Positions 2,234-54,280 of a stretch of 64,000 nt of DNA are shown one piece after another. Below the pieces are notes generated by a model. That model saw nothing but the letters and a program-made list of their open reading frames with translations, was not told the origin of the DNA and ran no database searches. Both the position numbers and the translations under genes were made by a program. Source of the stretch: an uncultured Chloroflexia bacterium (GTDB lineage: Bacteria; Chloroflexota; Anaerolineae; Anaerolineales; UBA11858); assembly GCA_963751575.1 (NCBI GenBank), contig CAVVUX010000003.1:292563-356562 (forward strand), in the 5' to 3' direction. Numbering within the stretch: position 1 is the first letter of the stretch; each line of letters opens with the position of its first letter.

Positions 2234-2296
2234 GACACTTCTTGTTCTCAATTGTTTTTAATAACATTCAATAACCAATTTATTACTCCAACTGAC

Positions 2297-3248
2297 ATGG
2301 AAGATCTTCCTGATTATTTTGTAAGCAGGATAACAAAAAGTCACGGCCAGGTTGGTATTGATTGGCTGAATGATTTTGCAGCTTTGAGGGATGATTTCAG
2401 AAATCGCTGGTCGTTGACTGATCCCCAACCCATAGCCGAGCTATCTTTTAATTATCTGGAATATGCTAAAACCCCTAGCGGGGTGGATGCTGTGCTCAAA
2501 ATGGGTGTTCCCAATCCGGAAATTGAAAGTGAAATTTCTACCCTGATAACTTATGCTGGCAGAGCAGCTGTCAAACTTCTCGATGGTGATCCTGCTCTCG
2601 GAGTCCTTTTGCTGGAGAGGATCCGGCCGGGTCATGATTTATTGAGCCTGAAAGATGATCAGGCCGGGGCGAGAATCGGGGGACAGCTAATGAAGAATCT
2701 CTGGCGTCCAGCACCAGAGGATCATAGCTTCCCTACAATTGGAAAATGGTGCCAGGGATTTGCCAGGTATCAGAATTATCACCCTGGCCAGTCAGGTCCT
2801 CTGCCAGCAGACCTTGGTCAGCCAGGCTGCCGGAATTGCCCGGGAGCTGCTAAGTGAGAATGTTGAACAATTTCTCCTCCACGGAGACTTGCACCACGGA
2901 AATATCCTCTTGGGCCAAGATGACCGGTGGCTGGCGATCGATCCTAAGGGTGTCGTCGGAGAAAGAGCCTGCGAGATCGCACCCCTGCTGTACAATCCGA
3001 TCCCGGATCTGATCCAGCGTCCGGACCTGGTGAAGATCATCAACGAACGCCTGGATATCCTGGCAGATTCAACTGGTCTTAATCGGGAAAGAATGCTGAT
3101 CTGGTGTTTTGTCCGCTCTGTGCTATCCTCGATCTGGTCTGTAGAAGACAGAAGTGGAAATGAATCCTACGGGTGCGATATTTGCAATACTTTTATTGAG
3201 GCTTATGAAACATGGAGACCTCCGAGGTCTATAAAACCTCCGAGGTAG
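2297..3248 (+). CDS. Aminoglycoside/hydroxyurea kinase (APH(6)-like) family protein; frameshift near 2815
   Basis: VLKMG and LLLERIRPG in the first ORF; LLHGDLHHGNIL and WLAIDPKG in the second. The 3' end runs into a palindromic repeat. Confidence 0.8.
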
Positions 3249-3343: not shown

Positions 3344-5188
3344 TTACTCAACAGTCACTGATTTTGCCAGGTTGCGAGGTTGATCAACATCCAAACCGCG
3401 CAGGGCGGCTATGTGATATGCCAACAGCTGCAGCGGGATCACCGTGGTAACCGGGCTTAACATCCAGGGGGTTTCCGGAACATAAAGCACCTGATCTGCC
3501 TGGGCTTTGATCAGGTCATCTCCTTCGGTTGCAACAGCAATCACTCTTCCTCCCCGGGCTTTAGCCTGCTCTATCTGGCTGAACATCTTGTCATACCAGG
3601 GATCCCTGGGAGCGATCACCACAACAGGAAGACCAGAATCAATCAGGGCGATCGGTCCATGTTTCATCTCACCCGCTGGATAACCCTCTGCGTGAATATA
3701 TGAGATCTCCTTTAGTTTCAGGGCTCCTTCGTAAGCCGTGGGCATATTCACTCCCCGCCCCAGGTAAAGAGCATTTTGAGCTTCCAGCATACTTTCTGCA
3801 ACAAGTTTGATCTGATCCTCTTGATCCAGACAGCGGCCGGCGAGATCGGGGACCAATCGCAGATCCTCTACCAGCTGACGGCGCTTCTTTTCATCCAGAG
3901 TTCCCCTCAATTCTCCCAGCAAAATCGCCAACATATACAGATCAACCAGCGGGAGCTGTATAGGCTTTGGTCGAGGCAACGCCAATCTCAGGGCCAACCT
4001 GCATCGAAATAAATCCATCAGCAATGCGCATCGCCTGGGAACCGATTGCATTAACGATCGACCACAAGGTTGCCCCTTTCCGACGACCTTCTTCCATGGC
4101 AGCCAGTGTATCAGCGGTTTCACCGATCTGGCTGATAGCCAGGACCACCGTTTTATCATCAACTATCGGATCCTGATAGCGAAACTCAGAACCGATCTCA
4201 ACTTCAACCGGAATACGGGCAATTCGTTCGATCAAGACTTTGCCGACCATGCCAGCGTAAGATGCTGTTCCGCAGGCGATGATAAATATCTTATTGATAT
4301 CTTTGACCAACTCTCGGAGTCAGATTTAATGTCGGAAGTTGAATCGAACCGGTTTCAAAATCGACCCGTCCGGCAATGGTATCGGTCAGTGACCGAACCT
4401 GTTCGTGGATTTCCTTGTGCATGAAATGGCGGTATTCTCCCTTTTCTGCTGACACCGGATCCCAGGGAACATTATGAACCTCAGCATTCCACTTCTTCTC
4501 CATCCAGGTTCATCACTTCCAAACCCTGGCGGCTGACTACAGCCATCTGGTGGGATTCCAGAAAAACCATTTTCCGGGTATGTTCCAGGATAGCTGGAAG
4601 ATCCGAGGCAATGATACATCTCATCCTCACCTATACCAAGGACCACTCCACCGGCGTTGCCGATCCTGGCTGCGACTGATTTTATCCGGCTCATTCTTAC
4701 TCATAACCACAATACCGTGAGCGCCTTTCAGGTGGCGCAACGCCTGCTGAACAGCATCGGTAAGATTGTTCCCTGAGAGATAACGTTCCACCAGGTGGAC
4801 AATCACTTCAGTATCGGTTTCAGATTGAAATTCCGCACCTTCACTTTCGAGTTCATCACGCAAGGTTGAAAAATTCTCCACGATGCCGTTATGAACCACA
4901 ACCACATCCCCAGTCATGCCCAGATGAGGATGAGCATTGCGGGAATTGGGCTCTCCATGGGTTGCCCAGCGGGTGTGACCTATGCCAAGATTGCCTTTCA
5001 GTGGGTCATCCTGAACAAGCTGGGATAATCGTTCCAGCTTGCCGGCATCCCGCCGGATCTGGATCAGCATCATTTTCAAGGACTGCAATACCAGCGGAAT
5101 CATAACCCCGGTACTCAAGCTTTTTTAACCCATTCATGATAATGGGTGTTGCGTTTTTCGGTCCAATATAACCAACTATTCCACACAT
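3344..5188 (-). CDS. glmS: Glutamine-fructose-6-phosphate transaminase (isomerizing), split by several indels
   Basis: [65 protein letters not shown]. Confidence 0.95.
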
Positions 5189-5299
5189 AGATAATACCCT
5201 CCTGAATTACGTCAGCCCATCCACTTCTACTTCATTGACAGGCTTACCCGACCTGTATTCAACGCTCAGGCAGTTAGCAGATCAAAGCTGTTTGATATC

Positions 5300-5535
5300 C
5301 AGTCACCTAGGATGATCTTGTCCCACCGGTCACCCGGGTTTTTATCATCCTTTTTAATGTGGAGGGAAAAATCGGAGTGTGACTATCTCCGGAGGGCTTC
5401 CGCTGATGGTTCGATTTTCCCGGTCTTGTTTTCCCCCGACCGGTTAGCCTCCCTAAGGAGGAACCCTCATCCTCGTCAACTCAAGTTTGGCTGCTGATCA
5501 AATCCTATCAGCACTTTGAGTCCATGCGCTATTTT
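5300..5535 (-). ncRNA. glmS ribozyme (GlcN6P-activated) with core insertion
   Basis: Minus strand reads AGCGCATGGACT-P1-AGTTGACGAGGATGAGGGTT...ATCGAACCATCAGCGGAAGCCCTCCG, then P4 GGATGAT..ATCATCC and the AGTCAC/GTGACT pseudoknot. Lies directly upstream of glmS; predicted cleavage at 5530/5529. Confidence 0.9.
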
Positions 5536-5658
5536 CCCAGCTGTTATGCTCTCCTGTCACCTCCTTGAATACCAATCCGCGAAGGAAATCGACCAAGTCG
5601 TTCCCTCGCGGATGTTATCTTACTAAACAACCAGATAATTCTGCAAGCTACGCTTTCC

Positions 5659-8569: not shown

Positions 8570-10669
8570 TCAGCGTTTTTCAACCGCTACTGCGCAGACT
8601 TTATAATCCGGAATCTTTGCCTGGGGATCTCTGGCATCCATGGTGAGAATATTAGCGGCAGCTTCCACAAAGTGGAAAGGAAGAAATACCATGCCTTCGG
8701 CGGACCTTTCTGTAACCAGGGTCTTGACCTCAATCTCTCCTCTCCTGGACCGCATCCTGACCCAGTCCCCTGAATAAATGCCAATCTTCTGGGCATCGAG
8801 AGGATGAATTTCAACCAGCGCTTCTGGATAGATATCATCAAGCTTAGACCGCCGGGTCATCGTCCCACCATGCCAGTGATACAATACCCGGCCTGTTGAG
8901 AGGATCAATGGAAACTCATCATCCGGCAGTTCCTGGGAAGGCCGGTAAGTCAATGGAGTCAAGGCACCTTTCCCGCGGGGGAAACTTTCGGCGAACAAGT
9001 ACGGTGTCCCGGGATGCTCCGGGGTCGGGCAGGGCCAGTGCACACCATCTTCCTGGGCAATCCTCTGATGCGTGATACCCTGAAAAGGAGGAGTCAATTC
9101 AGCCATCTCATCCCAAATCTGAGAGGGACTTTCAAAATCAAAACCAATACTGGATTTCACCTCCAATATTTCCTCTACCCTGTGGGCCAAATCCTGGAGA
9201 ATTTGCCAATCGGGTCGGGTCTCCCCCGGAGAATTAATCCCCGGACGAATTAACTGCACCCTCCTGTCGCTGTTGGTGAAAGTGCCGTCTTTCTCTGCAA
9301 AGCTGACAGCAGGCAGGATCACATCAGCATATTCACCGGTTTCATTCATGAATATATCCTGATAAAGGACAAACTCCAGGCTTTCCATCACATGGCGAGC
9401 ATGCAGCAGATCCGGTTCACTCATCATCGGGTTTTCACCCATCACAAAGTAACCCTTAATAGCACCTGTTTCAGCAGCATCAACCATTTCCATAGTAGTC
9501 AAACCCGGTTCAGGATCGAGTGAAGTGCCCCAGTGTTTTTCAAATTTCGCCCGGACTTCAGGGTCAGATACCAGCTGATAGCCGGGATAGACATCTGGCA
9601 GGCCCCCGCTGTCCGAACAACCCTGGACATTATTCTGGCCCCGCAGGGGATTAAGTCCTGTTCCCGGGCGGCCGATATTACCGGTCAGCAGGGCTAAGTT
9701 GGCCAGGGATATGGCATTATCAGTTCCATGGACACTCTGGCTGATACCCATGCCCCAATAGATAGCGGCTGCGCCTGCATTACCGTATAATCGGGCAGCC
9801 TGTCTGATCGTTTCAGCAGGAACTCCACAGATCTGCTCGGCATACTCCGGTGTAAATTCTTCCAGGGAAGGTATATATTCATCGAAACCCTCCACTCGTT
9901 GATCGATAAATTCCTGATCGATCAATCCTTCCTTCACGATCACATGAGCCAGGGCCTGGAACATGACAACATCCGTACCTGATTTAAGCTGTAGGTAGTA
10001 ATCAGCAAATTGTGACATTCCAATTTGCCGGGGATCGATAACAATCAATTTAGCGCCGTTCTTAACTACAGCTTCAATCAGGAATGTGCTGATCACCGGG
10101 TGGGTTTCCGAGGTGTTGGATCCGGTCACAAGCAATACCTCAAGGTCTTTCATCTCGGCAATTGAATTGGACATTGCTGAAGAACCGAGGGTGATCTGCA
10201 ATCCTGCAACAGAGGCGGCATGACAGAGACGGGAGCAATGATCCACATTATTCGTCCCCAAAACGCCCCGAACAAATTTCTGAAAAATATAGTTGTCTTC
10301 ATTGGTTGCTTTTGCAGAGCAAAAAGTTCCCAGCGCGTTACCACCATGCTCTTTGACGATCCCGGCAATTCTCTCAGCAGACAGATCCAGGGCTTCATCC
10401 CAGCTTGCCCGCCGGAAGCCGTTCAAGCCAACTGGTTTTCTTGGCAGAGTTCCCAGGTCCTTGCGGATTAAGGGGTATGTCAATCGGGAAGGATGATGCA
10501 CAAAGTCCATCCCATAACGACCTTTGGTACACAATCTCCCAAAGTTGGGAGCAACATCAAAAGGCGCATCCACCCTGGTTATGTGATTTTCCTGGATTTG
10601 CAGGTCCACCTGGCAACCTACTCCGCAGTAAGGACAGGTACTTCGAACAGTTTTCTGAGTATCTGTCAT
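8570..10669 (-). CDS. fdhF: Mo/W-bisPGD formate dehydrogenase alpha subunit (Cys form)
   Basis: CPYCGVGC...C cluster, active-site RLCH, RGQNNVQG, molybdopterin dinucleotide-binding C-terminus. Confidence 0.92.
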   Translation of the reverse strand: MTDTQKTVRSTCPYCGVGCQVDLQIQENHITRVDAPFDVAPNFGRLCTKGRYGMDFVHHPSRLTYPLIRKDLGTLPRKPVGLNGFRRASWDEALDLSAERIAGIVKEHGGNALGTFCSAKATNEDNYIFQKFVRGVLGTNNVDHCSRLCHAASVAGLQITLGSSAMSNSIAEMKDLEVLLVTGSNTSETHPVISTFLIEAVVKNGAKLIVIDPRQIGMSQFADYYLQLKSGTDVVMFQALAHVIVKEGLIDQEFIDQRVEGFDEYIPSLEEFTPEYAEQICGVPAETIRQAARLYGNAGAAAIYWGMGISQSVHGTDNAISLANLALLTGNIGRPGTGLNPLRGQNNVQGCSDSGGLPDVYPGYQLVSDPEVRAKFEKHWGTSLDPEPGLTTMEMVDAAETGAIKGYFVMGENPMMSEPDLLHARHVMESLEFVLYQDIFMNETGEYADVILPAVSFAEKDGTFTNSDRRVQLIRPGINSPGETRPDWQILQDLAHRVEEILEVKSSIGFDFESPSQIWDEMAELTPPFQGITHQRIAQEDGVHWPCPTPEHPGTPYLFAESFPRGKGALTPLTYRPSQELPDDEFPLILSTGRVLYHWHGGTMTRRSKLDDIYPEALVEIHPLDAQKIGIYSGDWVRMRSRRGEIEVKTLVTERSAEGMVFLPFHFVEAAANILTMDARDPQAKIPDYKVCAVAVEKR

Positions 10670-10671
10670 GG

Positions 10672-11376
10672 TCAGCTCCTTTTATCCTTGCGTTCCTGCC
10701 TGCGGCGGGCCCGGATCTCATCGTGCTGTAAACCTTTTTCTAATAAATATTCAGTCTTTCCCTGCAGAGCTTTGGTAGGACAAACACCCACGCAGTTGCC
10801 GCAAAAGACGCAGGTAGTGTCCGGCATCGGATTATCAAAGAATGTTGTGATCTTGCTGTCATGTCCCCTTCCTCCCAATCCCAAGGCATAGGTGAACATG
10901 ATGTCATCAGCGCAGGCTTGAACACAGCGCCAGCAAAGGATACATTGGCTGTAATCCCGGACATAAAATGGATTGTCATCCAGAACCTCGTGTTGGCGTT
11001 TTTTCGCCCCTGGAAACCGGTCTGGATCTGCCTGGTAGCGCTTCATCTGGTTCTGCAAAGCTGGTGAACGGGAAATATCGGCGCTGGCGTTGAGCATCTC
11101 CAGGATCGTTCGGCGGGAACGCACAACACGTTCGCTTTCTGTTTTCACAACCATATCCTCAGCCACGGGCGTGATGCAGGAAGGAGCTAATCTGCCCCAT
11201 CCATCGATTTCCACCACACATTGGCGGCATAATCCTTCGGCGGTAGTGGCATCATGGATGCAGATCACCGGAATGTTGATATCCAGGGACGCTGCTGCTT
11301 CCAGAACACTTGTACCTTCAGGTACCTGGCACTTTTTTCCATCAATTTCCAAGTTAATCATTTGTTTCTTAACCAT
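10672..11376 (-). CDS. FDH-associated Fe-S subunit (2Fe-2S plus 2x4Fe-4S, HoxU/NuoG N-terminus-like)
   Basis: IPVIC..GLCRQC..SC; CILCWRCVQAC; CVFCGNCVGVCP. Confidence 0.88.
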   Translation of the reverse strand: MVKKQMINLEIDGKKCQVPEGTSVLEAAASLDINIPVICIHDATTAEGLCRQCVVEIDGWGRLAPSCITPVAEDMVVKTESERVVRSRRTILEMLNASADISRSPALQNQMKRYQADPDRFPGAKKRQHEVLDDNPFYVRDYSQCILCWRCVQACADDIMFTYALGLGGRGHDSKITTFFDNPMPDTTCVFCGNCVGVCPTKALQGKTEYLLEKGLQHDEIRARRRQERKDKRS

Positions 11377-13099
11377 GTCTGCCTTCCTCAAGCCCGAAAT
11401 ATTCAGGGCAGATCTCAATTGCGCTTAATACTGCTGAACCCGCTGTCTGCCCCAAACCACACAAAGATGTGTCGGTCATGGTAGCAATAATATCCTCCAG
11501 CCGTTCGATATCACCCACCAGGGCCTGACCGCGCAAATTGCGATCCAGGATCTCTGCCTGCCGTTGAGTGCCCAGCTGGCAGGGATAACATTTGCCGCAG
11601 CTTTCATGGGCAAAAAAATGTCCCAGGCCATGAAGTACAAACTTCATGTCTACCTCTTCGTCAAAAACTACCACCGCTCCAGAACCCAGGGAGAGACCAG
11701 CTTCCTTAACTCCCTGATTTGTGAGAGTAACATCCAGATGGTCGGGGGCCACAAATTTTCCAGCGGCACCACCTAACAACACGGTCCGGAGTTCTTTGCC
11801 TCCCCTGATACCACCTGCTTTTTTATAGATCAGCTGCTCAAGTGTGATCGGTTCAGTTACTTCATAGATCCCGGGTTTTTCTACATCTCCCGAGATGCTG
11901 AACAAACGGGGACCAGTAGAACCGGAAGCCCCCATTTTTTTGTATTCATCAGCTCCAATCTTAGCTATCAAGGCCACATTGGCAAGGGTTTCGACATTGT
12001 TGATCACAGTGGGCTGATTAAACAAACCGTGAGTGGTTGGGAAAGGAGGTTTTACACGGGGAAATCCTCGTTTGCCTTCTATTGATTCAAACAGAGCGGT
12101 TTCTTCTCCACAGATATATGCTCCAGCACCACTGCGCAGTTCAATATCAAAATCAAATCCACTGCCAAGGATATTCTTTCCAAGGAAACCATCCTGGGCT
12201 GCTGTCTTCAGGGCCTGGAGAATCACCTGATGGGAGTGTGTGTATTCGCCCCTGATATAGAGGTAACCTTTGCCAGCACCAATTGCATAAGCAGCAATGA
12301 TCATGCCCTCGATGATTGTGAATGGATCTCCCTCGATCAAAGCTCGATCCTTAAAGGTGCCAGGTTCTGATTCATCTTCGTTGCAAACCAGATATTTTGG
12401 AAACCGGTCAACTTCAGCACAGCCGCTCCACTTTAAACCGGTCGGAAAACCTGCCCCTCCCCGACCAGTCAGTTCGGCATCTGTAATCATCTGGATCACC
12501 TGATCTTCAGGCATCGCTAAAACTTTACGAAGACCATCAAATCCGCCCGCTTTCTGGAATTCTGCGGTACTTAACGGGTCGATCTTTCCTACCCGTGCCA
12601 TCAGATGCAGGTCTTCCCCGTATATCGCTGATTGAGGATGTCCAACCGGATTGAAGATCGTTTCCAGGGTTGCTTCCCCAACCATGTCATCCCCTACCAA
12701 AACACCAGGAGCGTGATCACACAAACCGAGGCATTCCACTTCTTCTATAATATAGCGGCCATCTACGGTAGCTTCACCAACTCCAACTCCCAAATGCTGG
12801 CACAGCTCTGCAACCAGATCACCACTGCCCTGAGAGGCGCAGGATGGCGTGGTGCAAACACGGATGGAAGTTTCAGCCCGGGGTTCACTTGATAACATGG
12901 AATAAAATTCGATCACACCATAAAGGTCCGCCAGGGGAACATTTAGGGAATCACTGATTGCTTGCGCGGCTTCCCTGGGAATATAGTCATAAATCTGCTG
13001 GGTTTTCAGCAGTGCTGGAAGCAGCATAGTTCTGCCTCGCGAGCCGTTATCTTCCAGGTAATCAATTAATTGTGAGGAAAGAGAGAAATCACTTCCCAT
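11369..13099 (-). CDS. NuoE-NuoF fusion (HoxF-like NAD(P)H/FMN diaphorase subunit)
   Basis: CTTPSC..CLGLC 2Fe-2S motif; GRGGAGFPTG, EPGTFKDR, YICGEETAL, ESCGKCYPC. Confidence 0.9.
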   Translation of the reverse strand: MGSDFSLSSQLIDYLEDNGSRGRTMLLPALLKTQQIYDYIPREAAQAISDSLNVPLADLYGVIEFYSMLSSEPRAETSIRVCTTPSCASQGSGDLVAELCQHLGVGVGEATVDGRYIIEEVECLGLCDHAPGVLVGDDMVGEATLETIFNPVGHPQSAIYGEDLHLMARVGKIDPLSTAEFQKAGGFDGLRKVLAMPEDQVIQMITDAELTGRGGAGFPTGLKWSGCAEVDRFPKYLVCNEDESEPGTFKDRALIEGDPFTIIEGMIIAAYAIGAGKGYLYIRGEYTHSHQVILQALKTAAQDGFLGKNILGSGFDFDIELRSGAGAYICGEETALFESIEGKRGFPRVKPPFPTTHGLFNQPTVINNVETLANVALIAKIGADEYKKMGASGSTGPRLFSISGDVEKPGIYEVTEPITLEQLIYKKAGGIRGGKELRTVLLGGAAGKFVAPDHLDVTLTNQGVKEAGLSLGSGAVVVFDEEVDMKFVLHGLGHFFAHESCGKCYPCQLGTQRQAEILDRNLRGQALVGDIERLEDIIATMTDTSLCGLGQTAGSAVLSAIEICPEYFGLEEGRHG

Positions 13100-13302
13100 T
13101 GGATCTCCTTTAAGAATCTGGTAGAACACTGGCACATAAAATGATCTGGATCTGATGATAGAGAGATATGTGACAGATTATATCAAGAGCAGGGACACAT
13201 TTTTGAAAGTTTGGAAATATTCTAAGAAATTCATCATAATCTTATCTGGTTCAGAACACCAGATTATTAAAGGATCCAGGGGCCAATCAATTTTCATTGA
13301 TT

Positions 13303-18893: not shown

Positions 18894-20934
18894 GTGGAGT
18901 ATCGGCGATCCAAATCTAGGGATGACACGGGAGACACTGGAATGACTAAATCCGGATTTGAGCTGCAGTTCGAAAAAAATCCCTGGCAGTGTTTGATCAT
19001 CAGGAAAGGTGAGATCATATTTCAGTTGATGACTGATTATCAATTGATCTCGGAATCCATCCAGGGGGAAACCTACCATTTCCAATTCAATCAGCAAAGT
19101 CTCCAGCTGACTGTCAAGAAGTCGGTAATTTCATTTGAATGGGAGGGGCAGAATCTCAGCAATCAGATCCATTTAACTGGTTATTGGTACGGTGGTGGAG
19201 AGCTGATCAATCAGCCGCTGACCTGGAACGAAACCATGTTCCCCATGACCGAATTCTTCACCAGTGATAATGGACTGACCGGATTGTCAACAGTTCTCTC
19301 CCCAATCTGGCTCAGTAGTCTGGGGATAGGATTGATCGTCAACAGCCCCTTCTCGATTGGGATCAATCAACCACCTGAAAAATACCTTAATCGGCAGCAT
19401 GGCTTTTCGCCGGATCTGATCCCATTTAAGGATCGCCCGTTCCGTGATTTAAAGGGAGAAGGTGACAGGATGATCAGTCTGGTTGCCGACGACCTTGAGT
19501 TCGAGATCCTGATCGAAGACGATATTGTCAGCTGCCATCGAGCGCTGGTAAAAAAAATCGGGGTCCCGAAAAAAACCCCGCCCCTGGAATTGATGGGAGC
19601 ACCAATCTGGACCACCTGGGCCCGCTACAAGGACAAGATTGACCAGGACTCAGTTCTCGAGTTTGCCCGAGAGATCCAAACGAACAGTTATCCATATCAC
19701 GTGCTGGAGATTGATGACCGCTGGCAGACTCAATACGGCGACCTGGAATTCGATCCAGTTAAATTTCCTGACCCCAAAGAAATGATCCGGCAGCTGCATG
19801 AGATGGGTTTTAAGGTAACTGTCTGGGTTGTGCCTTTTTTCCATCCCCAATCTGCTGCCGGCAAGGAAGCTGCTCAAAAAGGCTACCTGGTAAAAATTCA
19901 AACCGGAGAGCCCTATCATGTCAAGTGGTGGCAGGGTTGGGGGTTTCTGCTCGATGTCACCAACCCGGATGCCCTGGCCTGGTATAAAAACAGGCTGGAT
20001 TCGTTCAAGGAAGAATTGGATCTGGATGGCTATAAATTTGATGCCGGGGAAGCCAAGTATTGCCCGAAAGAGGGAATCCTCAGTGAATCTCTGGATTCTC
20101 AGAATGACTATACCCGTCTCTATGTGAAATGGATTTCGGAAAACTTTTCCTTCTCTGAGGTGCGCTCAGGTTGGATGAACCAGACTGCCCCGATCTACTT
20201 CCGGTTGTGGGATCTGTGGAGTGTCTGGGGTTATGACAATGGTTTAAGATCGATAATTCCCTCCATGCTGGCCATGTCACTCACCGGATATCCTTTTGTG
20301 TTCCCTGACATGATTGGCGGAAATGCATATTTCACATTCCCGAAGAATCGAGTTATGAACTGGATCTTGCAGAAGATCGTCATTCCCCTCATGGAAAGAA
20401 GTGTTAAAAACAAATCGGAATATCCAGAGGAGGAAACCCTGAGCATGGGTGACGTGCCGGCCTGGATCGAAAAATCCACCCATTTTGGCTACCCTACGCC
20501 AGAATTGATGGTGCGCTGGGCCCAGGCCAATGTTTTCCTGGGAGTGATGCAGTTCAGCCTGGCCCCCTGGGATTTTGGAGAGCAATGCAACCAGTACTGC
20601 AGGGAAGCTGCCGAACTGCACCTGGATTATCTGCCAACTCTGCACAAATATGCCCGCCAGGCCCTTGATTAATGGAGAGCCGATCATACGACCTGTATTT
20701 TGGCTGGCACCCAATGATGAGGAAGCCCTCATATGTGGCGACCAGTTCCTGGTGGGGGATGAGATCCTGGTGGCACCCATCCTGCATTCCAAACAGATCA
20801 GCAGGAAGATCTATTTTCCCCCCGGGGTCTGGCAGGATCCAGGATCGGGAGAATCTTTCACAGGTCCTCAAAATCTTGAAAATTATCCAGCTCCACTCAG
20901 TAAACTTCCCTTTTTTATTCGTCAAACAGGATAA
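18894..20934 (+). CDS. Glycoside hydrolase family 31 (MYORG/NET37-like); one extra base near 20670
   Basis: PIWTTW, EIDDRW, KFDAGE nucleophile, PDMIGGN acid/base. The C-terminal PIIRP..DQFLVG..LVAPI is in the shifted frame. Confidence 0.88.
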
Positions 20935-46146: not shown

Positions 46147-46186
46147 GCTAATTGTTAATTCAGCCGTGCGCTGGAGTCAAGCAACG

Positions 46187-46465
46187 ATGAAAATTGAGAA
46201 TACCAAATCGAAGGATTTATTGATCAATCGGCTGCGCAGGATTGAAGGCCAAGTCCGGGGTTTGCAGACCATGCTGGATGAGGAGCGCGACTGCCGGGAG
46301 ATCATGCAGCAGCTTTCTGCGGTTTCCTCAGCTGTAAAATCCACCAGCCGCAGGTTTTTTGAGGATTATGCGGTGCTCTGCCTGGCAGATATGAGTGAGA
46401 CCAATCCTGATGCCAACCAGCAGCTGCTGCAGGAGATGATCTCCTTGCTGGATAAAACCCCCTGA
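46187..46465 (+). CDS. CsoR/RcnR-family metal-sensitive repressor
   Basis: NRLRRIEGQVRG, C.EI.QQLSAV. Confidence 0.88.
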   Translation: MKIENTKSKDLLINRLRRIEGQVRGLQTMLDEERDCREIMQQLSAVSSAVKSTSRRFFEDYAVLCLADMSETNPDANQQLLQEMISLLDKTP

Positions 46466-46547: not shown

Positions 46548-46621
<74 letters not shown>

Positions 46622-46634
46622 CAAACAAAACATG

Positions 46635-53570: not shown

Positions 53571-53713
53571 GATCCAATTCCGTGACTGAGGTCATAAAAT
53601 GAAATCTATCCATCAGACACATTGGGTATGTCTTCGCCAAAGCTGGTGATCTAATTATTGAGTGTGGTACGAAAAGCTATCCATTTTATCGGTTTCAACT
53701 TGAGAGGTGTAAT

Positions 53714-54280
53714 TTGAATAAAACCCTGTATGTCAGCCTGGCAGTGCTGTTTGCCTTCCTCGTGGCGGGATGTGCATCTCCGCCTCAGCCTGCTCCCGAA
53801 TCATCCCTGATTGGATCAACCGCTCCAGATTTCAGCCTCGACAACACTCTTGGCGGCAAAACCGCCCTTTCGGATTACGACGGGACGCCCGTCCTGCTTT
53901 TTTTCCATATGGCGGTGGGTTGACCGCCCTGCATGGAGCAGATCGTTGATCTGCAAAACAGCCCTGATTTTCAAGCCCTTGATGTCCAGTTGATCAGCAT
54001 TGCTCGCGATACAATCGCTGAGATGGCCCCGGAATCTGCTACACTGGGAATTACCAGCGTTCCTGTTCTTTCTGATCCTGACCTGGCGGTATCCGCGAAG
54101 TATGATGTCCTGCAGTGGGCCATAGATAATGGAGAGCCCAGCCATACCTTTGTCCTGGTTGACAAAGGCGGAAAGATAGCCTGGATCAAGGATTACGGCG
54201 CGCCAGACAATCCCAACCGGACCATGTATGTTGAGGTTGGCGAACTGGTAAATTTTGTCAAAGCAAATCTTGGGAATTGA
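53714..54280 (+). CDS. AhpC/TSA-redoxin family lipoprotein; candidate selenoprotein (UGA at 53921 read as Sec, UPPC motif)
   Basis: ORFs 53714-53923 and 53933-54280 share a frame: APDFSL..LLFFHMAVG-TGA-PPCMEQ..LISI..VLSD..TFVLVDKGGKI; lipobox VAGC. Confidence 0.8.
53924..53955 (+). promoter_or_regulatory. Candidate bacterial SECIS hairpin
   Basis: GCAGATC-GTT-GATCTGC stem (53938-53954) with a G-first apical loop 21 nt after UGA. Confidence 0.6.

Follow-up and report, generated by a model that had tools for sequence, protein, structure and literature searches.

An in-frame TGA divides a redoxin gene predicted to encode an exported UxxC selenoprotein in an uncultured Anaerolineales bacterium

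Introduction

Two short redoxin-like open reading frames (ORFs) separated by little more than a TGA codon may be two genes, the remains of one, or a single gene in which the TGA is read as selenocysteine (Sec). This question is raised by positions 53714-54280 on the plus strand of a 64,000-nucleotide stretch of DNA, here called the window, from an uncultured Chloroflexia bacterium of the Anaerolineales (GenBank assembly GCA_963751575.1, contig CAVVUX010000003.1, positions 292,563 to 356,562 of the forward strand). The original prediction, made from the sequence alone, took the pair for one exported lipoprotein redoxin with a UxxC motif (U, Sec), followed by a hairpin resembling a bacterial selenocysteine insertion sequence (SECIS). 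Our analysis indicates that the locus is very probably a real selenoprotein gene, and it is likely that the product, from a single gene, is a Sec-containing, lipid-anchored, extracytoplasmic thiol:disulfide oxidoreductase.

Results

The two ORFs form one gene

The ORF listing and translation placed an ORF at 53714-53920, a TGA at 53921-53923 and a second ORF at 53924-54277 in one frame. Between this TGA and ATG 53933, which opens a 115-codon ORF terminated by TGA 54278-54280, only CCG CCC TGC intervenes and the frame is kept. The read-through product has 188 residues (LNKTLYVSLAVLFAFLVAGC...PVLLFFHMAVG-U-PPC-MEQIVDLQNS...). TTG 53714 is the earliest start codon available in the open frame and is preceded by a Shine-Dalgarno-like motif (Table 1); on inspection of the sequence upstream of ATG 53933, no motif comparable to GAGAGGTG was seen.

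Pfam analysis of the read-through protein gave AhpC-TSA (PF00578; E 2e-22, residues 33-157, 79.9 bits against a cut-off of 26), with the domain spanning the TGA, and a Redoxin match (E 2e-16), whereas the 115-residue piece alone matched only the second half of the AhpC/TSA model. PF00578 was also matched by all 81 members of the family assembled here. With its single frame and a domain that crosses the TGA, the locus is therefore one 188-residue AhpC/TSA gene, as first proposed, and the TGA does fall at the first position of a UxxC motif, U70-P-P-C73. An AlphaFold2 (AF2) model of the read-through protein, built on the 81-sequence alignment, had a predicted local distance difference test (pLDDT) score of 92.3 and a predicted template modelling (pTM) score of 0.84. 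It showed a thioredoxin/peroxiredoxin fold in which Sec70 directly precedes helix 71-81.

TGA is a normal stop codon in the window, where it ends 16 of 45 Pfam-supported ORFs, this gene among them. The region had also been described as free of the indels seen elsewhere, and this was upheld: the ParA, aminoglycoside kinase (APH), GlmS and GH31 genes of the window are broken across frames, unlike the redoxin halves, which share a single frame.

The TGA is conserved and is matched by Cys in distant relatives

A protein search with the read-through protein returned 558 relatives. Among the best 120 database matches, 118 were C-terminal fragments of 109-117 residues beginning at the equivalent of Met74, and N-terminal fragments ending in ...FFHMAVG were also present in the database (P0163, P0262). 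Since the fragments all start at Met74, gene callers have cut the gene off at one place in more than 100 sequence clusters. UxxC peroxiredoxin-like (Prx-like) selenoproteins are often mis-annotated as split genes, as the earlier remark had it. Only two matches among the best 120 were full-length: P0002, with CSPC at the motif, and P0055, with W at the U site, most simply a gene call made under a table in which TGA encodes Trp.

Genomes were scanned, one per species, using peptide patterns from the C-terminal half that are hence blind to the TGA, and 58 loci were found (given L numbers below). L047, L055, L056 and L058 are partial matches that stop short of the redox motif and were left out of the TGA count. 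All 54 loci that cover the redox-motif column, at 41-84% identity, carry TGA there, and protein sequence is conserved on both sides of it (...FFHMAVG before, PPCMQQIVDL... after).

Searched exhaustively, 1.84 billion representatives yielded 2962 relatives, and 31 of the best 150 were examined, of which 28 were full-length. Every one of these 28 distant relatives (30-47% identity) has Cys at the U column, in motifs that include EGIGCGGCW and EGLTCQPCW. The second Cys, in the Cys73 column, is found in 52/52 Sec forms and 27/28 Cys forms, and the U column is invariant across the 81-sequence alignment when U is written as C. Homologs had been expected to show either Cys or TGA at this column, and that is what the loci, the distant relatives and P0002 display. 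Within the clade Sec forms dominate, P0002 being the one Cys form among the best 120 clusters. The second-best match of the exhaustive search, P0124 (4320 residues, 32 stretches), proved to be a repetitive surface protein that contains no CxxC and was therefore rejected as spurious.

Anaerolineae and other Chloroflexota account for 36 of the 52 tree rows. The other carriers include 8 Desulfuromonadales-type genomes (Pelovirga, Desulfuromusa, Geobacteraceae and one bin labelled Desulfopila) and 3 Actinomycetota. The eight Desulfuromonadales-type copies (L020, L022-L025, L027, L029, L053) form one clade with support of 99, nested inside the Chloroflexota copies, which suggests that the TGA-plus-SECIS gene may have been transferred horizontally between phyla. 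L002 and L008, two contigs from a Nitrosomonadaceae-labelled bin, likewise fall among the Chloroflexota; they probably bear that label through mis-binning.

A hairpin downstream of the TGA shows compensatory changes

The hairpin GCAGATC / GTT / GATCTGC has a stem that begins 14 nt after the TGA and a loop G 21 nt after it, as originally described. Its conservation was assessed in an alignment of 55 genes, gap-free over 72 nt around the TGA, in which 54 distinct sequences were counted. Over these sequences 98.1% of the cells of the 7-bp stem are paired, the loop reads GUN, and the RNAalifold consensus is the same stem (6 pairs, 5-nt loop).

Compensatory changes were found in three stem pairs. 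At the fourth pair (53941/53951), 31 distinct sequences have A-U and 23 have G-C, with zero G-U and zero mismatches; at the fifth, 50 have A-U and 4 have G-C; at the first, 47 have G-C, 3 have C-G and 1 has A-U, and 3 are unpaired. The fourth pair connects the third codon position of Gln76 (CAA/CAG) with the first of Leu80 (TTG/CTG), and as both changes are synonymous, their coupling is explained only by RNA pairing. On the maximum-likelihood protein tree this pair switches at least 6 times, once in the window gene itself (G-C among A-U relatives). None of 500 shuffles reached the observed pairing or covariation score, and sliding the partner by 1-3 columns lowered pairing from 87.6% to 24-41%.

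In the stretch I77 V78 D79 L80, for which the hairpin codes, the TGA forms hardly vary and the Cys forms do (V78 in 52/52 vs 7/28, L80 in 52/52 vs 15/28), as expected from double coding plus structural constraint. Taken together, the alignment indicates that the hairpin is under selection as RNA. Bacterial SECIS elements are described as stem-loops just downstream of the UGA with a small apical loop containing G (PMC1088965), and the window hairpin agrees with this description in its position and in its small, G-containing apical loop.

A possible lower stem that would enclose the UGA is part of the minimum free energy (MFE) fold of the window sequence. Across relatives 75.3% of its cells are paired, its outermost pair is mostly broken, and it is absent from the RNAalifold consensus. 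Rfam holds no family for the hairpin: at the gathering threshold the window gave a tRNA and glmS only, and a permissive scan of 53850-54050 gave three matches, all at chance level.

Fold, active site and export signal

Foldseek searches against the PDB ranked peroxiredoxins, AhpE and Bcp first (E ~3e-11, template modelling (TM) score ~0.68), with Etrx2 (2yp6, 'pneumococcal exposed lipoprotein thioredoxin') at rank 19 and ResA at rank 45. By sequence, the best solved relative is Etrx2 (E 3e-7), in which WCGPC lines up with G-U-PPC and puts Sec70 in the place of the attacking Cys. At the cis-Pro-Thr loop of Etrx2, Pro142 (present in 51/52) aligns with the Etrx2 Pro, and Ser143-His144 are inserted before Thr145.

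When aligned with the peroxiredoxins 5enu and 4kw6, Cys73 corresponds to the peroxidatic Cys, Sec70 to the Thr of TxxC and Met66 to the Pro, so that of the peroxiredoxin PxxxTxxC motif the Cys is kept and the Pro and Thr are replaced. His144, aligned with the R of YRG in the Prx-1 protein 4kw6, stands in place of the conserved active-site Arg and is kept in 52/52 Sec forms and 27/28 Cys forms. With the Met66, Sec70 and His144 substitutions the peroxiredoxin signature is lost and the thioredoxin-type UxxC is kept. U70-P-P-C73 corresponds to the UxxC definition of the Prx-like selenoprotein family as worded in PMC1088965 and PMC13188914.

A lipobox, LVAGC, is present at residues 16-20 after a signal peptide, in agreement with the original prediction, and the signal is conserved. 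Among 55 N-termini of relatives, 46 match the lipobox pattern [LVIMFAT][ASTVIGLC][GAS]C and a further 7 have a variant Cys after a hydrophobic stretch, giving a signal and lipobox Cys in 53/55; of the remaining two, one is cut by the contig end and one has no visible lipobox. By eye, the distant Cys forms mostly have a longer, membrane-anchor-like N-terminal hydrophobic stretch.

Candidate selenoproteins near the redoxin relatives

Within 3-8 kb of redoxin relatives we found further redox genes with TGA in place of a catalytic Cys, and their Pfam domains were confirmed on the read-through translations. L019:4391-5239 (-) encodes a DsbA-like protein with FGDFQ-U-PYC, in which a Thioredoxin_4 match (E 3e-34) spans the TGA. 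L022:3388-4344 (-) and L053:12275-13267 (+) encode VKOR-thioredoxin fusions with FYGTFW-U-PAC, and L006:1705-2346 (-) a DUF411/CopG-type lipoprotein with YKSPT-U-GCC. In both VKOR genes a 7-bp hairpin (loop AGUU/AGGU) begins 13 nt downstream of the UGA, a geometry like that of the redoxin hairpin. These neighbours would lend indirect support to Sec decoding. The window itself was screened for TGA codons flanked by open frames and lying three residues from a Cys or Thr; the 13 candidates were all judged by eye to be out-of-frame or antisense noise.

The original prediction called the cell surface an unusual location for a Sec redoxin. That goes too far: DsbA-like, DsbG-like and thiol:disulfide interchange proteins were already among the published families of predicted bacterial selenoproteins (PMC2398784, PMC13188914), and exported candidates lie near the relatives described here.

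Proposed mechanism

Translation would start at TTG 53714. The first UGA would be recoded to Sec by the hairpin, which would recruit SelB and Sec-tRNASec, and the second UGA, at 54278, has no such hairpin and would bring about termination. To judge from the lipobox, the precursor would be exported, lipidated on Cys20 and cleaved, giving a mature product of ~169 residues, a thioredoxin/peroxiredoxin-fold domain on the outer face of the cytoplasmic membrane. Sec70, at the N-terminus of helix 71-81, would act as the attacking nucleophile, and Cys73 would resolve the intermediate as a selenenylsulfide in thioredoxin-type (UxxC), not peroxiredoxin, chemistry. For the substrate and the direction of electron flow, we infer that the likely job of the protein is to reduce oxidised cysteines or partner enzymes outside the cytoplasm, as do ResA, TlpA and Etrx. 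A link with copper stress probably exists in a subset of lineages (see below).

Several observations weigh against this proposal. Among the 76 ORFs of the window, which covers 64 kb of a contig of ~1.05 Mb, no SelA, SelB or SelD family match was found with Pfam, and the sole tRNA of the window is a tRNA-Val, with no tRNA-Sec, so the statement that the window lacks sel genes was correct; the flanks of the 58 related loci, examined by tRNA scan only, also gave no tRNA-Sec. In single-sequence folding the hairpin was no more stable than shuffles (z = -0.75 and -0.89), and 37/200 shuffles folded at least as well as the window hairpin (z = -0.75). Only 2 of the A-U/G-C switches are forced by well-supported branches, which leaves a sign test powerless to reach significance. 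The conservation of the loop G-U is confounded with protein conservation because the invariant G-U also belongs to the Val78 codon. No NCBIfam model reached its cut-off (best 38 bits vs 261; ResA 31.1 vs 170, TlpA 16 vs 230, PrxU 18 vs 270 bits), and the functional assignment therefore rests on fold and motif. The loci have no universal neighbour, the commonest family being a LuxR-type response regulator in 10/55, and a conserved redox partner is missing, with no CcdA/DsbD, MsrAB or Sco among 98 immediate neighbours. That the observation is more than chance is shown decisively by the comparative evidence, namely the TGA in 54/54 loci and the hairpin covariation, unlike the stability of the hairpin in a single sequence.

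Alternative explanations

The main functional rival is a selenoprotein that acts as a peroxidase, a surface hydroperoxide reductase of peroxiredoxin type. Selenols react fast with peroxides. The protein is matched best by AhpC/TSA in Pfam and by peroxiredoxins in Foldseek, Cys73 corresponds to the peroxidatic Cys, and a catalase-peroxidase gene adjoins the redoxin at L005. However, PxxxTxxC and the active-site Arg have been lost through the replacements described above, a UxxC at the start of a helix is arranged as in thioredoxins, and NCBIfam peroxiredoxin models score far below their cut-offs; we consider a peroxidase role unlikely.

Could the UGA instead be read through as an amino acid other than Sec, by near-cognate Trp or Cys insertion or other recoding, with the hairpin as a mere stimulator? 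UGA followed by C is a weak termination context, and in at least 90% of the genes a C follows the UGA. This explanation could also draw on the W at the site in P0055 and on the 64-kb window, in which no Sec machinery was seen. It is nevertheless highly improbable: the Cys found at the column in the 28 distant relatives and in P0002 fits a Sec/Cys pair and not Trp, TGA is an ordinary stop in the window, and the neighbouring genes of listed selenoprotein families, such as the DsbA-like one, repeat the TGA-for-catalytic-Cys pattern. In its position and in its small apical loop with a G, the hairpin also matches the description of bacterial SECIS elements (PMC1088965).

Still less probable is a pair of products, a 69-residue lipopeptide ending at the TGA and a 115-residue cytoplasmic protein starting at ATG 53933. 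Neither piece is a complete fold, as both the Pfam domain and the confident AF2 model cross the junction, and the C-terminal piece would have neither redox motif nor export signal. Codon 74 is Leu (CTN) in 5/52 genes and Val in 3/52, so the downstream half cannot start independently everywhere; ATG 53933 is not preceded by a Shine-Dalgarno motif, and the hairpin covariation would have no role. It is true that the 115-residue ORF is what the database lists in 118 of the best 120 clusters. Competition between SelB and RF2 causes some termination at Sec UGA codons, so that some of the short product is expected anyway.

A sequencing or assembly error, or a recent nonsense mutation that left a pseudogene, is hardly conceivable despite the split ParA, APH, GlmS and GH31 genes of the window, since those defects are frameshifts and here the frame is kept with only the TGA intervening, the same TGA recurs in 54/54 genomes with strong protein-level conservation of the flanks up to the codon, and TGA is in normal use as a stop.

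Relation to known families

Selenoproteins with UxxC on the PF00578 fold have been described since 2004-2005, and as this combination is already documented, the window gene belongs to an established predicted family and current understanding is not overturned. Prx-like UxxC selenoproteins were reported as 22 sequences in the Sargasso Sea set (PMC1088965), and 'Prx-like 1, pfam00578, UxxC' as 225 selenoproteins with 2740 Cys homologs in the Global Ocean Sampling (GOS) set (PMC2398784). Geobacter, Syntrophus and Desulfotalea are tabulated as having a 'Prx-like thiol:disulfide oxidoreductase' (PMC1794560), and a 2026 review lists the Prx-like thiol:disulfide oxidoreductase selenoprotein as 'predicted with high confidence' (PMC13188914). 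Compared by published description, the window gene shares with this family PF00578, UxxC in place of TxxC/TxxU, a SECIS after the UGA and occurrence in Desulfuromonadales. The window clade differs in its conserved lipoprotein signal, its FHMAVG-U-PPC-M sequence, its near-invariant His144 and a KDYGAPDNP block, as well as in being centred on Anaerolineae and almost always Sec. In the literature on the Prx-like UxxC family we found no Anaerolineae clade with lipoprotein signal, GUPPC and His144, and the name 'Anaerolinea' is absent from the text of the 2026 selenoproteome papers, whose supplements, like BSepDB, may already list the clade.

Etrx1 and Etrx2 of S. pneumoniae are surface-exposed thioredoxin-family lipoproteins with MsrAB2 as redox partner (PMC3914529). 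Judged by sequence, the window protein resembles them (PDB 2yp6, 4hqz) as a predicted lipoprotein on the outer face of the membrane whose UxxC aligns with their CxxC. Etrx uses Cys (WCGPC) and keeps the cis-Pro-Thr loop; the window protein has Ser-His144 inserted between Pro142 and Thr145, and msrAB did not occur among the 98 immediate neighbours. With ResA, TlpA and CcmG it shares a thioredoxin fold, predicted to be extracytoplasmic and membrane-tethered, with the chalcogen motif at a helix N-terminus (Sec by prediction); it differs from them in its predicted Sec for the first Cys, and neither cytochrome-c maturation nor CcdA genes adjoin it. Peroxiredoxins, including the selenoprotein PrxU (TxxU), have the same overall fold, with the peroxidatic Cys at the position of Cys73. 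In the window protein, by contrast, Sec takes the Thr and not the Cys position and the active-site Pro and Arg are gone.

Sco proteins (SCO1/SenC) are a further point of comparison, as they too have a Prx-like thioredoxin fold, two chalcogens with a downstream His and an extracytoplasmic tether, and copper genes are found at 12/55 of our loci. The Sco motif has CxxxC spacing, unlike the CxxC-type spacing of the window family, and the Sco His is a copper ligand. Weak SCO1-SenC matches were obtained for 49/81 family members at E<=1 (best 5e-5). For the window protein, Pfam gave no support to membership in Sco (PF02630, 12.6 bits vs a cut-off of 22.8, E 0.13).

The locus matters chiefly as a gene that is widespread in Anaerolineae, occurs in Desulfuromonadales and some Actinomycetota as well, and is systematically mis-called: the public entry is a 115-residue 'redoxin domain-containing protein' fragment, where the correct product would be a predicted exported selenoprotein of 188 residues. 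With its compensatory synonymous changes and a Cys-form sister clade, it also offers a clean natural case of a bacterial SECIS constrained both as coding sequence and as a structure. That the clade is almost obligately Sec suggests that selenium gives a real catalytic advantage outside the cell.

Gene neighbourhood and a possible copper connection

At 12 of 55 loci a CopA-type P-type ATPase with an HMA domain, a multicopper oxidase or a CsoR-family repressor lies within 6 kb; these include L003, L007, L010, L013, L033, L017, L023, L024 and L053. By a rough estimate, with the loci phylogenetically non-independent, a copper-gene neighbourhood would occur by chance in ~1% of 12-kb stretches. The arrangement at L003 (9317-15253), all on one strand, is csoR, redoxin, LTXXQ-like lipoprotein, copA(HMA) and cytochrome c, and the LTXXQ-like lipoprotein and copA are common to L007, L010 and L013. 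The Desulfuromonadales loci have a multicopper oxidase and cytochrome c as neighbours, and at one locus a CopZ zinc-finger protein adjoins the redoxin.

Directly downstream of the redoxin at 7 loci (L001, L004, L006, L016, L019, L021, L026) is a gene for a small Met/Gly-rich membrane protein of 109-170 residues (MMGYGMMG...) with a C-terminal, zinc-ribbon-like CPxCS...CPYCS motif, for example L001:5382-5726 (+). It has no Pfam match and may be a metal-binding partner.

The recurrent copper-homeostasis neighbours are a testable lead to the substrate, and we treat the copper link as a lead, not a result. A more specific proposal is that the protein is a copper-stress selenoprotein, in which Sec70, Cys73 and His144, with His65, Met66 and Met74 nearby, would bind Cu(I) in the manner of Sco or keep copper-attacked extracytoplasmic thiols reduced. 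It would then form part of an 'extracytoplasmic selenoproteome' of Anaerolineae and Desulfuromonadales that has so far not been described, together with the Sec forms of DsbA, the VKOR-thioredoxin fusion and the DUF411/CopG-like protein. We regard this proposal as speculative and rather doubtful.

In the window, the neighbours of the redoxin are an amidohydrolase (syntenic with L001) and a glyoxalase-family protein. The sole copper-type gene there is a CsoR-family repressor at 46166-46462 (+), 7.5 kb upstream of the redoxin. The repressor gene adjoins a tRNA-Val (46548-46622) and two ORFs without a Pfam match.

Coordinates and other features of the window

Table 1. Positions of the elements of the redoxin gene within the 64,000-nucleotide window
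Feature	Position	Strand	Basis
Shine-Dalgarno-like GAGAGGTG, 4 nt ahead of the TTG start	53702..53709	+	Sequence inspection
Start TTG, signal peptide and lipobox L-V-A-G-C (Cys20 codon 53771-53773)	53714..53773	+	Translation, relatives
Whole predicted selenoprotein gene, 188 codons including UGA-Sec70, stop TGA 54278-54280	53714..54280	+	Translation, Pfam, AF2
In-frame TGA, predicted Sec70, first of U-P-P-C, just before helix 71-81	53921..53923	+	Conservation, AF2
TGC, Cys73, putative resolving Cys of UxxC; aligns with the peroxidatic Cys of peroxiredoxins	53930..53932	+	Alignments with 5enu, 4kw6
SECIS-like hairpin GCAGAUC-GUU-GAUCUGC, 7 bp (or 6 bp with 5-nt loop CGUUG)	53938..53954	+	Covariation, RNAalifold
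Possible lower stem enclosing the UGA, 53917-53922 with 53959-53964; weakly supported	53917..53964	+	MFE fold
His144 codon; near-invariant, family-specific, at the place of the peroxiredoxin active-site Arg	54143..54145	+	Alignments

A terminator-like hairpin with a T-run (GACGGGACGCCCGTC CTGCTTTTTT) lies within the coding sequence at 53879-53896 (+), ~25 nt ahead of the Sec codon. The sequence codes for ...DGTPVLLFF..., and the hairpin has probably arisen as a by-product of this conserved peptide.

Elsewhere in the window, genes for a ParA/Mrp-like protein (364-1424, -), an aminoglycoside-kinase-like protein (2252-3245, +), GlmS (3347-5118, -) and GH31 (18894-20931, +) are split over overlapping or adjacent ORFs in different frames, and these look like assembly indel errors rather than biology. 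On the minus strand at 8573-13135, ORFs for NuoF-like, 2Fe-2S/4Fe-4S and molybdopterin-oxidoreductase proteins stand in a row, formate-dehydrogenase-like. The Fe-S ORF stops at TGA 10672-10674 and the molybdopterin ORF starts 2 nt out of frame, so that the junction is either a further indel or a boundary between two separate genes. The molybdopterin catalytic ORF (8573-10669, 699 residues) contains no in-frame TGA and is therefore not a Sec enzyme. Upstream of the apparently frameshifted glmS, a glmS ribozyme was identified at 5298-5541 (-) (Rfam RF00234, 45.6 bits).

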